A DNA stretch of 64,000 nucleotides from Octopus vulgaris. Taxonomy: Eukaryota. The stretch is taken from contig OX597815.1 of NCBI GenBank assembly GCA_951406725.2, positions 63,612,001-63,676,000 of the forward strand, written 5' to 3'. How positions within the stretch are numbered: the stretch's first letter is position 1; each line of letters opens with the position of its first letter. Positions 12,608 to 35,675 of the stretch are shown in pieces. A model generated the notes under the pieces. That model worked only from the letters and a program-made list of their open reading frames with translations. It was not told where the DNA came from and made no database searches. Both the position numbers and the translations under genes were made by a program.

Positions 12608-12949
12608 TATATTTATTTATAAGGGTGTATTTCAGATTATTCAATATATAAATTTTACCTTTTTATCAACTAGTTTATCCTTTATATCTGTTCATTTAGG
12701 TATGTACCTAAGTTTGTCGATGTATGTATGTATGTATGTATGTATGTATGTATGTATGTATGTATGTATGTATGTATGCATGTGTGCATGTATGTATGTA
12801 TGTATGTATGTATGTATGTATATATATGTGTCTGTATATATAGGTATGTATGTATGTATGTATGTATGCATGTTTTATGTATATAGATATATATATGTAT
12901 ATGTGTGTGTGTGTGTGTGTGTATAGTGAATTAAAAAACAGAGGGAAAA

Positions 12950-13132
12950 AGAAAAAGAAAAACAAACGTGTGAACGTAGAACAAGCAATGTATTAATAAG
13001 ACGCCCAGAGAAGGAAAAGAGTAGTAGTTTTACGTTTTGAGCATAGCACTTCTTCGGAAACAGGGAAAATAGGATAGTCCAAGACGAAGAAGGGAAAACG
13101 AATCACCAACAATCACGTGCGGTTACATTTCT
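12950..13132 (-). mobile_element. Penelope-type pLTR fragment with degenerate minimal hammerhead
   Basis: Homologous to 37930-38140; GTTT-CCGAAGA-AGTGCTATGCTC-AAAA-CG-TA-AAAC at 13027-13061. Confidence 0.65.
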
Positions 13133-13421
13133 GACATACATATATATATATCTATATTTAAATAATGAGGGAGATAAATTAATATTAATTTTAATATCAA
13201 TTTAAAACCAGTAGTCTAGCATACAAAAATCTGAGAAGTCAGAGAAAATTCTAATATATGTGTATATTGGCAGGGTTTGACTGCTAGGAAGTCGGCCGTA
13301 TGCTAGAAACAGATCATCAACGATCAAACTACAAAGGAATTCTCTAGAGGAAAAATTCAGCGAACACCAGAACCAAATTTGGCGGGCAGGACAGATGAAA
13401 ATTTATATAAAAAACAGAATT

Positions 13422-13499
13422 AAATGCATACCTCAGTTTCGGCCTTTTACAAAAGAATTACTTACATAATTCAGATGTCCGTGCTTCATCAGTGCATTC
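13422..13499 (-). ncRNA. Type I hammerhead ribozyme (antisense copy)
   Basis: AATGCA-CTGATGA-stem II-GAAA-CTGAG-GTA-TGCATT. Confidence 0.7.
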
Positions 13500-13821
13500 G
13501 TTCATTGTAAATGTAAACTGAAAAACTAACCCCAGCCTTCCGTGCCAAGACAGACACGTGCTTAGTTTTACCGATTACATTAGGGATAAAATTTCAAATG
13601 TCTTGTTTCTGGCGCGCTAAGAAATTCCTGAAGCGAAGGGCTGCAGTAAATAATTCACTGCGGTTAGTGCTTACTACTAGAGAACGTATTTATTTCAATA
13701 TTTAAATAATGAGGGAGATAAATTAATATTAATTTTAATATCAATTTAAAACCAGTAGTCTAGCATACAAAAAATCTGAGAAGTCAGAGGGTTAGTTTTT
13801 CAGTTTACATTTACAATGAAC

Positions 13822-13899
13822 GAATGCACTGATGAAGCACGGACATTTGAATTATGTAAGTAATTCTTTTGTTAAAGGCCGAAACCGAGGTATGCATTT
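13822..13899 (+). ncRNA. Type I hammerhead ribozyme
   Basis: Stem I AATGCA (13823-28) / TGCATT (13893-98); core CTGATGA 13829-35; GAAA 13881-84; short stem III; GUA cleavage triplet ending at 13892. Confidence 0.75.
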
Positions 13900-14028
13900 A
13901 ATTCTGTTTTTTATATAAATTTTCATCTGTCCTGCCCGCCAAATTTGGTTCTGGTGTTCCTTTGTAGTTTGATCGTTGATGATCTGTTTCTAGCATACGG
14001 CCGACTTCCTAGCAGTCAAGCCCTGCCA

Positions 14029-14029
<1 letters not shown>

Positions 14030-14110
<81 letters not shown>

Positions 14111-34391: not shown

Positions 34392-35675
34392 CGAGGGGTG
34401 TATGAAAAGTCTTGACCCTCAAAACAAAACAAAACATGGTAGAAGACTTCTGATGATTTATTTTTCTACATAGTCCCCCTCGATGGCTGAACACTTTCTC
34501 CAGCAGTGCTGAAGCGCTATTATCCTGGAGTAGAGGAACTCCTTTGCTTGAGATTCCAACAAACTTCCTACACCATCTATGACGTCATTGTCACTGTCAA
34601 AATGGCGACCAGCCAGGGCTTTTTTCATTTTTGGAAACAGGTGAAAGTCAGAGGGGGCTAAGTCTGGCGAATAAGTCAGATGGGGAACAAGTTCGTATCA
34701 ATAATCACGAATTGTTGCCATGGCAACCACTGAGGTGTGGGCTGGAGCATTGTTGTGATGAAAAAGGACTCCTCTGGTGAGCATTCGTAGCCTTTTTTCT
34801 TAGATTGCTTCTCAGAGGCATTTCAGTAGCTGAGAATAATACAGCCTTGTCACGGTGTGACTCTTTTCAAGCTAATCGACCTTGAGAATCCCCAAAAACG
34901 GATGCCATGACCTTGCAAGCTGAAGGAATGGCCCTGGCCTTCTTTGGGATAGGAGAAGATGTGTGCTTCCACTACTTTGATTGTTCTTTGGTTTCAGGCT
35001 GGTAGTGATGAACCCAACTTTCGTCCATAGTAATGAAATGAGCAAGAAAATTCTCTTCATCGGCTTCAAACAGTTTCAGATTGCTCGTGAACAAAGTGCA
35101 CCTGGTGGATTTCTGTTCAGGAGTCAAAAGGCGAGGGACCCATCCTGCAGAAACCTTTGAGAACCGAAGTTCTTTTGTCACAATGTTGTCTGCTCTTTCA
35201 GTTGAGATGCCCAGTCTCTCAGCTATCTGACGACATGATATTCGGCGATCTTGCATTATTATACCAAGAGCAGGGTCAAGGTTGTCCTTGGTGGTTGCCG
35301 TTAGAGGTCGCCCTGGTGTGGGATGATCTTCCACACTCTCCCTACCATGCTTGAATTCATTTACCCAGCGTTTGACTGTTGCATATGAAGGAGCATTGTC
35401 TGTTAAGGTTCTCACCATATCTTCATGGATTTCTGATGGAGTCATGCCTTTCAAATGAAGGTCCTTTATGACAGCACGATACTCAGTTTTCTCCATTTCC
35501 CTTGTAAACTCGAAGCTTGTTTAATCAAAAATCTGCAACAAAAATAATTAAAATATCAGAATCATGAAAATGAGCAAGAATACTCCCAAAAGACTCTACT
35601 TACCAGAAAAAATTGTTTCAGCTATATACCAGTCCCATTTCTAGGTTAGGCTCAAAACTTTTCATACTCGTCTCG
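34392..35675 (-). mobile_element. Full-length (~1.28 kb) mariner, irritans-like
   Basis: TIRs CGAGGGGTGTATGAAAAGTCTTGA / CGAGACGAGTATGAAAAGTTTTGA; sits in a TA/TG microsatellite. Confidence 0.93.
34460..35496 (-). pseudogene. Mariner transposase pseudogene
   Basis: MEKTEYRAVIK...WVPRLLT...TMDESWVHHY; stop at 34972; later HHNNAPAH (catalytic D replaced) and YSPDLAPSDFHLFPK. Confidence 0.9.

Follow-up and report, generated by a model that had tools for sequence, protein, structure and literature searches.

An inverted pair of hammerhead motifs in the Octopus vulgaris genome as a likely integration scar of an ORF-less, Penelope-type repeat

Do two hammerhead motifs in inverted orientation at one octopus locus form a switch, or are they left behind by the way in which a repeat integrates? 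The locus lies in a 64,000-nt stretch of Octopus vulgaris DNA, here called the window (contig OX597815.1 of assembly GCA_951406725.2, positions 63,612,001 to 63,676,000 of the forward strand; positions below are counted from its first letter). The first-pass annotation had proposed a young, non-autonomous Penelope derivative with two intact hammerheads, in which a foldback competes with self-cleavage and could act as a switch or an ADAR/Dicer substrate. We consider it highly probable that the cassette represents a single insertion of an ORF-less hammerhead repeat with a 544-nt unit, likely mobilised in trans by a Penelope-like element (PLE), and that its inversion likely arose by priming on the two strands of a (TA)n target at two fixed sites, named S and T; its own foldback is predicted to silence both ribozymes.

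Self-BLAST and repeat finding bear out the arrangement A-B(rev)-C-A-B inside (TA)n that had been described, and also the near identity of the arms. Segment A is a direct repeat (13151-13244 and 13695-13789, 93/95 identical by self-BLAST). The B arms (13254-13532 and 13789-14042 by self-BLAST) are inverted, and their 254 aligned bases have 5 mismatches and one 25-nt deletion on the side of the plus arm. On inspection of the sequence, (TA)n stands on both sides of the cassette, as a left target remnant at 13135-13152 and a right tract at 14043-14106.

The long arm (13153-13789) amounts to 1.17 units, is ribozyme-sense on the minus strand and has its outer 3′ end at site T (unit 542). From this end inward, all on the minus strand, it consists of segment A (13153-13244 within the arm), a tail of ~100 nt that separates the two fixed 3′ ends; a linker (13245-13262) with the proximal fixed site S (unit 441, window 13254); a hammerhead motif (13423-13498); segment C (13533-13694), which is the 5′ part of the 544-nt unit; and the second A (13695-13789), which is the end of a preceding tandem unit, 5′-truncated at unit 451. 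At a head-to-head inversion junction (13789-13790) with 1 base of overlap, it meets the short inverted arm (13790-14042, plus strand), which spans unit 163-441, has the 25-nt deletion near 13956 and ends on the outer 3′ side at S. The string AATGCA-CTGATGA-45 nt-GAAA-CYGAG-GTA-TGCATT is present in both B arms, and each holds a type I hammerhead motif with a reduced stem II base. In the plus motif (13823-13898), the core is at 13829-13835 and GAAA at 13881-13884, and the cut is predicted after A17 at 13892. In the minus motif, the cut is predicted after A17 at 13429, and the stem III palindrome has a C>T change, which gives U.G in a dimer. With this head-to-head geometry, a transcript of either strand contains one sense ribozyme and its antisense arm, as had been pointed out.

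The cassette was inserted into (TA)n beside an older, unrelated repeat (12926-13135, minus strand) with a decayed minimal hammerhead. The family form of this adjoining repeat is CCGAAGA-A-GAGC/GCTC-GAAACGTA; there are 1769 candidates, and the best other copies stand at 80-87%. Elsewhere the window has a 4.3-kb (TAT)n microsatellite field (57675-61931) and an open frame of 182 aa (34972-35520, minus strand), which we take to resemble a mariner-type transposase fragment.

The cassette belongs to a dispersed, ORF-less family with a tandem unit of 544-547 nt, ordered C-B-linker-A in the ribozyme sense. No ORF with PLE RT and GIY-YIG endonuclease is present in the unit or the cassette. When segment B was searched against the 2.8-Gb genome, 1335 candidates were obtained, 40 of which were scored to give 48 matches. 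The exact core pattern has 244 genome matches and its reversed control 0, so the hammerhead motif is far above chance. Three further families with 66-75% identity have the same architecture, making four in all (F1-F4), with 3136, 3085 and 2240 candidates in overlapping sets. Copies are partial tandems of mostly 1-1.7 units and three at most, and arms longer than one unit are 60/170 at 117 F1 loci. The subfamily of the window has 85 matches at 80 loci, and its copies lie a median of 2.3% from the majority sequence, which bears on the label ‘young’. No description of this family was found in the available text of the literature searched, including PMC13282606 and PMC2837043; Repbase, Dfam and subscription papers were outside the search, and therefore the family may be catalogued there. 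Apparently it is an undescribed, abundant cephalopod-type lineage of retrozymes or non-autonomous PLEs with a long-stem-II hammerhead.

Some features of the unit stand by themselves. A small hairpin at unit 331-358 is recurrently deleted by 14-25 nt (L010, L027, L223, L242, L243 and the plus arm of the window near 13956), with an identical 25-nt deletion in two subfamilies; these deletions are likely due to RT slippage across the hairpin. At another locus (L110:1554-2838), eight 134-nt tandem copies comprise the F2 hammerhead region only, as a local secondary amplification. A look-alike of the Hydra-clade endonuclease end in segment C was considered as a protein relic and attributed to chance; F2 has a conserved hairpin there, and the protein is not conserved.

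Both arms of the window carry the CUGANGA, GAAA and UH core in type I order. In 27 copies (25 distinct), hand-picked over the F1 subfamilies and F3 from 139 motif matches, 92.9% of the cells of the type I structure are paired and 10/25 pairs have compensatory changes; with F2 and F4 rows added, 86% are paired, the F2 rows being misaligned in stem II. Covariation is 0.251 vs. 0.144 ± 0.008 in shuffles, figures that are not probabilities because the sequences are related, and slid controls pair at 40% or less. Stem I co-varies as AATGCA/TGCATT, ATTGCA/TGCAAT and ATCGCA/TGTGAT, and the stem II base as GGCC/GGCC, AGTC/GACC and AACT/AGTT. Stem III is a short palindrome with a monomer probability of at most 0.04, and its dimer duplex is at -8.6 kcal/mol for the plus copy and -5.4 kcal/mol for the minus copy. 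The core is conserved in 139/146, but this was not counted as evidence because many loci had been chosen by the exact core pattern. The Rfam check that had been proposed did not confirm the motif, as 0 window hits reached the gathering score; the sub-threshold local match was to Hammerhead_3 (23.8 bits vs. 48.5, E 0.02). A type III reading taken from that match was rejected, since sister subfamilies do not conserve the partner strand upstream. As far as comparative sequence evidence tells, the type I hammerhead fold is real at the family level.

In the window, the description of two intact hammerheads is right as to core, stem I and stem III but goes too far as to stem II, where the window subfamily is missing a base. 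In both copies, the 5′ strand of stem II is short by one base, with A opposite C at 10.1/11.1, and pair probabilities of the stem II base do not exceed 0.21 (plus) and 0.05 (minus). The corresponding values are 0.86-1.0 in the GGCC, AGCC and AACT forms, and 0.16-0.17 in AGTC. In other samples, most of the related contig depth has the base that is missing from stem II of the window. On these folding predictions, both window ribozymes are likely impaired.

Loop II, GTAAGT (GCAAGT in one subfamily), is found at 13851-13856 (plus) and 13465-13470 (minus) in the window and is conserved in all four families. It is a GNRA-type loop and at the same time a perfect splice-donor look-alike, reminiscent of the Penelope 5′ intron. 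A separate type I hammerhead at L031:4982-5042 (minus strand) shares stem III (GAAACTGAGGTA) and has a stem I of 6 bp; it is unrelated and shows no similarity to the 544-nt unit.

PLE and retrozyme hammerheads with a weak stem III work as dimers, as stated in the available text of PMC4209133 and PMC7229834. By analogy, the hammerhead of this family likely cuts multimer transcripts into unit-length RNA in a double-hammerhead mode. Two or three direct hammerhead copies per locus were counted by hand at 11/70 loci of the AGTC subfamily, and the exact pattern gave multiple direct copies at 0/80 loci of the window subfamily, with none at the window locus. The difference (Fisher p 1.5e-4 on hand counts) would connect stem II quality with multimer length, but it is confounded by subfamily history, patterns missed two copies each at L243 and L224, and the best-paired GGCC form, with 0/17 multimers among the matches listed, weakens the connection, which is a lead only. 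For some subfamilies, the hammerhead seems dispensable. The window subfamily with its weak stem II and F2 with its CCGATGA core have still spread, in keeping with the published finding for a purified PLE that its hammerhead mutants remain able to insert, so that insertion proceeds without hammerhead cleavage (PMC11167929, available text).

In read-through transcripts, whichever strand is copied, the sense ribozyme comes after its antisense arm. When the whole cassette is folded (approximately -510 kcal/mol), stem I has a probability of 0.000 on both strands, also in transcripts ending just past the ribozyme; without the antisense arm, it is 0.035-0.06 in local context. Thus, the envisaged competition between foldback and self-cleavage is not predicted, because transcription passes through the antisense before it reaches the ribozyme, and stem I is lost in the computed foldback. 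Besides, one sense ribozyme per strand leaves no dimer partner in cis. The window locus is predicted not to self-cleave from read-through transcripts, because a lone ribozyme with a weak stem III and a weakened stem II has a perfect antisense arm upstream.

The cassette dsRNA, if transcribed, is a possible substrate of ADAR or Dicer. In such a case, inverted cassettes would be a steady supply of ~100-500-bp perfect hairpins in a group of animals that edit RNA heavily. An ADAR signature was looked for in daughter copies and rejected; among private changes on the sense strand of 143 family segments, A>G is not in excess (61 vs. 111 T>C), with an A>G share of 0.355 against an expected 0.42 (p 0.09).

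Is the inversion peculiar to this locus? The 117 F1 loci, part of which were selected for having pairs, include 60 uninverted, 55 head-to-head inverted and 2 compound loci, and inverted loci are 15/29 in a BLAST-ranked subset and 23/60 among loci fetched later. Mixed-strand loci are head to head with 3′ ends outward in 55/57 cases, the other 2 being compound. Junctions differ from locus to locus and can lie at any point of the unit; the overlap or filler at them is mostly between -8 and +9 bases. Hammerheads on each strand were counted by hand at 5/80 and 11/70 loci of two subfamilies, all head to head.

The proposed switch is not supported, as inversion is seen at about half of the loci and each of these has its own junction. 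If the pair were kept for foldback control of cleavage or for feeding ADAR or Dicer, one could point to the near-perfect duplex of ~250 bp predicted on either strand and to the recurrence of inverted two-hammerhead cassettes (16/150 loci). Such a selected function is very unlikely in our judgment, as arm lengths as well as junctions vary freely and the inverted arms are mostly too short for a ribozyme, apart from the vanishing stem I probability with both arms, the weakened stem II of the window copies and the lack of an editing excess. Since insertions of this repeat are often head to head, the inversion here is likely an integration scar rather than a switch, predicted to silence both ribozymes, and the window locus is likely an inverted insertion that was dead on arrival and ordinary as a locus.

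Mis-assembly of a repeat would be a trivial reason for the inversion. Short-read contigs of four runs do not bridge the cassette, and tandem and inverted PLE insertions are known to be troublesome for assemblies (PMC8557442, available text). Yet the two arms are distinguished by 5 substitutions and the 25-nt deletion, and this geometry, governed by a strict end rule, is found at 55 loci whose junctions differ, leaving mis-assembly extremely improbable.

The end rule concerns two fixed 3′ ends, S at unit 441 and T at unit 542, which are ~100 nt apart and both lie in TA-like patches; a conserved helix of 9 bp, in which compensatory changes occur, surrounds S. Uninverted F1 copies end at T in 38 cases, at S in 17 and elsewhere in 5. 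Here ‘S+T’ refers to an inverted cassette with one outer end at S and the other at T. When both ends are at fixed sites, F1 cassettes are S+T in 39/39 cases, with S+S and T+T at 0 each; 16 further F1 cassettes have one end only at a fixed site. The rule was first noted in 22/22 cassettes and then tested on 60 newly fetched loci, where it held in 18/18 (two duplicates). The other families gave 7/7 (F2), 5/5 (F3) and 5/7 (F4), the F4 exceptions being two S+S cassettes mapped through a distant profile, and the total over F1-F4 is 56/58. An inverted Neptune-like autonomous copy (L123) has the same pairing of a short end and a tail end, in this one copy.

Could one arm have been copied from the other? 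Snap-back or self-priming, in which cDNA folds back or RT switches to the nascent strand so that the inverted arm copies the first, was proposed for PLEs on the basis of palindromic junctions (PMC3846280, available text), but just 2/39 junctions are palindromic here. The short arm is inside the span of the long arm in 26/39 cassettes, including that of the window, and both arms are always of one subfamily, 0.6-7.1% apart, as such copying would have it. On the other hand, neither arm contains the other in 11/39, and the arms are each other's nearest relative in 2/20 only. Thus, S+T pairing and non-nested arms argue against snap-back, which we regard as unlikely, and speak for two primers, each on its own nicked strand. 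As a further model, twin priming with collision on a single RNA was considered, and the test was negative (median 160.5 vs. 160.8 in the null, p 0.51).

Two-strand priming would proceed in the following course. First, a Penelope-like RT/GIY-YIG protein would retrotranspose the unit in trans. Second, both strands of the (TA)n target would be nicked, and each would prime reverse transcription, one at S and the other at T. Third, the two cDNAs would extend toward the RNA 5′ end on a multimeric or circular template, and their truncated ends would be joined through a short overlap or a filler of a few bases. The product would be a head-to-head pair, with both ribozymes silenced by the predicted foldback.

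Counted S+T pairing goes beyond published statements on PLE ends. No counted rule was found in the available text of the literature searched, with subscription papers outside the search, and a tail at one end is stated qualitatively in PMC3846280 and PMC8557442. In vitro, both strands showed the same start-site use in bulk with a PLE protein (PMC11167929, available text), and the S+T rule is not predicted by this equality. We tentatively suggest, at somewhat less than even chances, that start sites of the PLE RNP are not random and that an asymmetric RT-endonuclease dimer gives one per nicked strand. If so, every inverted insertion would have one short arm and one tailed arm. How inverted pLTRs with a one-sided tail are made is posed as open in the available text of PMC8557442, PMC3846280 and PMC11167929, and S+T pairing with non-nested arms makes this integration step testable with purified protein.

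Which element provides the protein? The assignment to a Penelope derivative that is non-autonomous and has type I hammerheads of reduced stem III fits in architecture, but an autonomous parent was not found. It fits because of 5′-truncated partial tandems, a head-to-head, 5′-truncated inverted copy, two 3′ ends with a one-sided tail and an AT-rich or (TA)n target, which mark PLE-mobilised repeats. In the search for a parent, the unit profile had no match among 70 distinct PLE loci of this genome (40 of 148 listed GIY-YIG matches and 30/73 Hydra-type RT-motif matches), and none of the intermediate families checked was contiguous with or homologous to a PLE. It is thus the architecture from which a PLE is inferred as mobiliser. 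Where flanks were checked (L089, L099), PLE fragments close to family copies look like neighbours in shared (TA)n.

The unit might instead be the pseudo-LTR of an undiscovered autonomous PLE, with the copies as its truncated ends. Hammerhead-bearing short inserts are mostly truncated PLE ends in the available text of PMC4209133, and the parent search covered 70 loci only. But copies extending 5′ of unit position 1 always run into the A of the previous unit and never into an ORF (all loci examined, four families), and tandems reach three units; we give the pseudo-LTR reading a very small chance.

As to resident PLEs, a Neptune-like family is abundant and intact (L116:2244-4586, L117:2163-4505), with a 781-aa RT/GIY-YIG protein and an upstream frame. 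These elements are (TA)n-targeted and have two ends, a ~46-nt tail and a U3-A8-type hammerhead variant (TTGATAA...GAAACATGTT). Hydra-type PLEs of the genome are decayed and close to the published Hydra-1_Obim protein and hammerhead.

Among known systems, EN+ PLEs share with this family partial tandems, 5′ truncation, a head-to-head inverted copy, a hammerhead in the repeat and two fixed 3′ ends, the extension being confined to one arm. Such PLEs as a rule have the inverted 5′-truncated copy, a tail on one side and a bias toward (TA)n, as far as PMC8557442, PMC3846280 and PMC8969392 are available, and (TA)n is the target in Neptune, Hydra and Naiad as well. In work with purified PLE protein, each of the two target strands is cleaved and extended, with two internal start sites that bound the tail, and the protein is predicted to be a dimer (PMC11167929, available text). 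Unlike EN+ PLEs, the unit here is ORF-less, its tail is ~100 nt vs. 30-40, and none of the Neptune-like and Hydra-like PLEs sampled in the octopus genome is linked to it in sequence; for PLEs, strict S+T pairing is found in print as no more than a hint (‘tail optionally at one of the inverted pLTRs’). PLE hammerheads (PMC4209133, available text) have, as here, a type I core, a 6-bp helix I and a 2-3-bp palindromic helix III that suits a double hammerhead. By comparison, helix II here is ~45 nt in three segments with a GNRA-type GUAA/GCAA loop, and 10.1-11.1 is G-C, A-U, A.C or U.U by subfamily, whereas PLE hammerheads conserve G-C.

Animal non-LTR retrozymes, according to the available text of PMC7229834 and bioRxiv 10.64898/2026.07.22.740005, are likewise non-coding tandem units with one type I hammerhead each, G+C of ~39%, a weak palindromic stem III and genomic dimers and trimers, and their dependence on PLEs is proposed, as it is here. 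The 544-nt unit is longer than the 170-400 nt of PMC7229834 and within the 51-972 nt of the bioRxiv paper, whose supplements list vertebrate and four invertebrate genomes and may bear on family overlap. As a circular monomer, it has a better fold than its shuffled versions (z -2.7 against 30 shuffles). Unlike retrozymes, the family has mostly 1-1.7 units per copy, is inverted at half of the loci and is known from DNA alone. The main value of the family is mechanistic, as its end rule bears on the formation of inverted pLTRs in PLEs. Taken together, the feature is probably a non-autonomous Penelope-type hammerhead repeat, retrozyme-like in its unit, that made its usual inverted insertion and is predicted to be catalytically silent at this locus.
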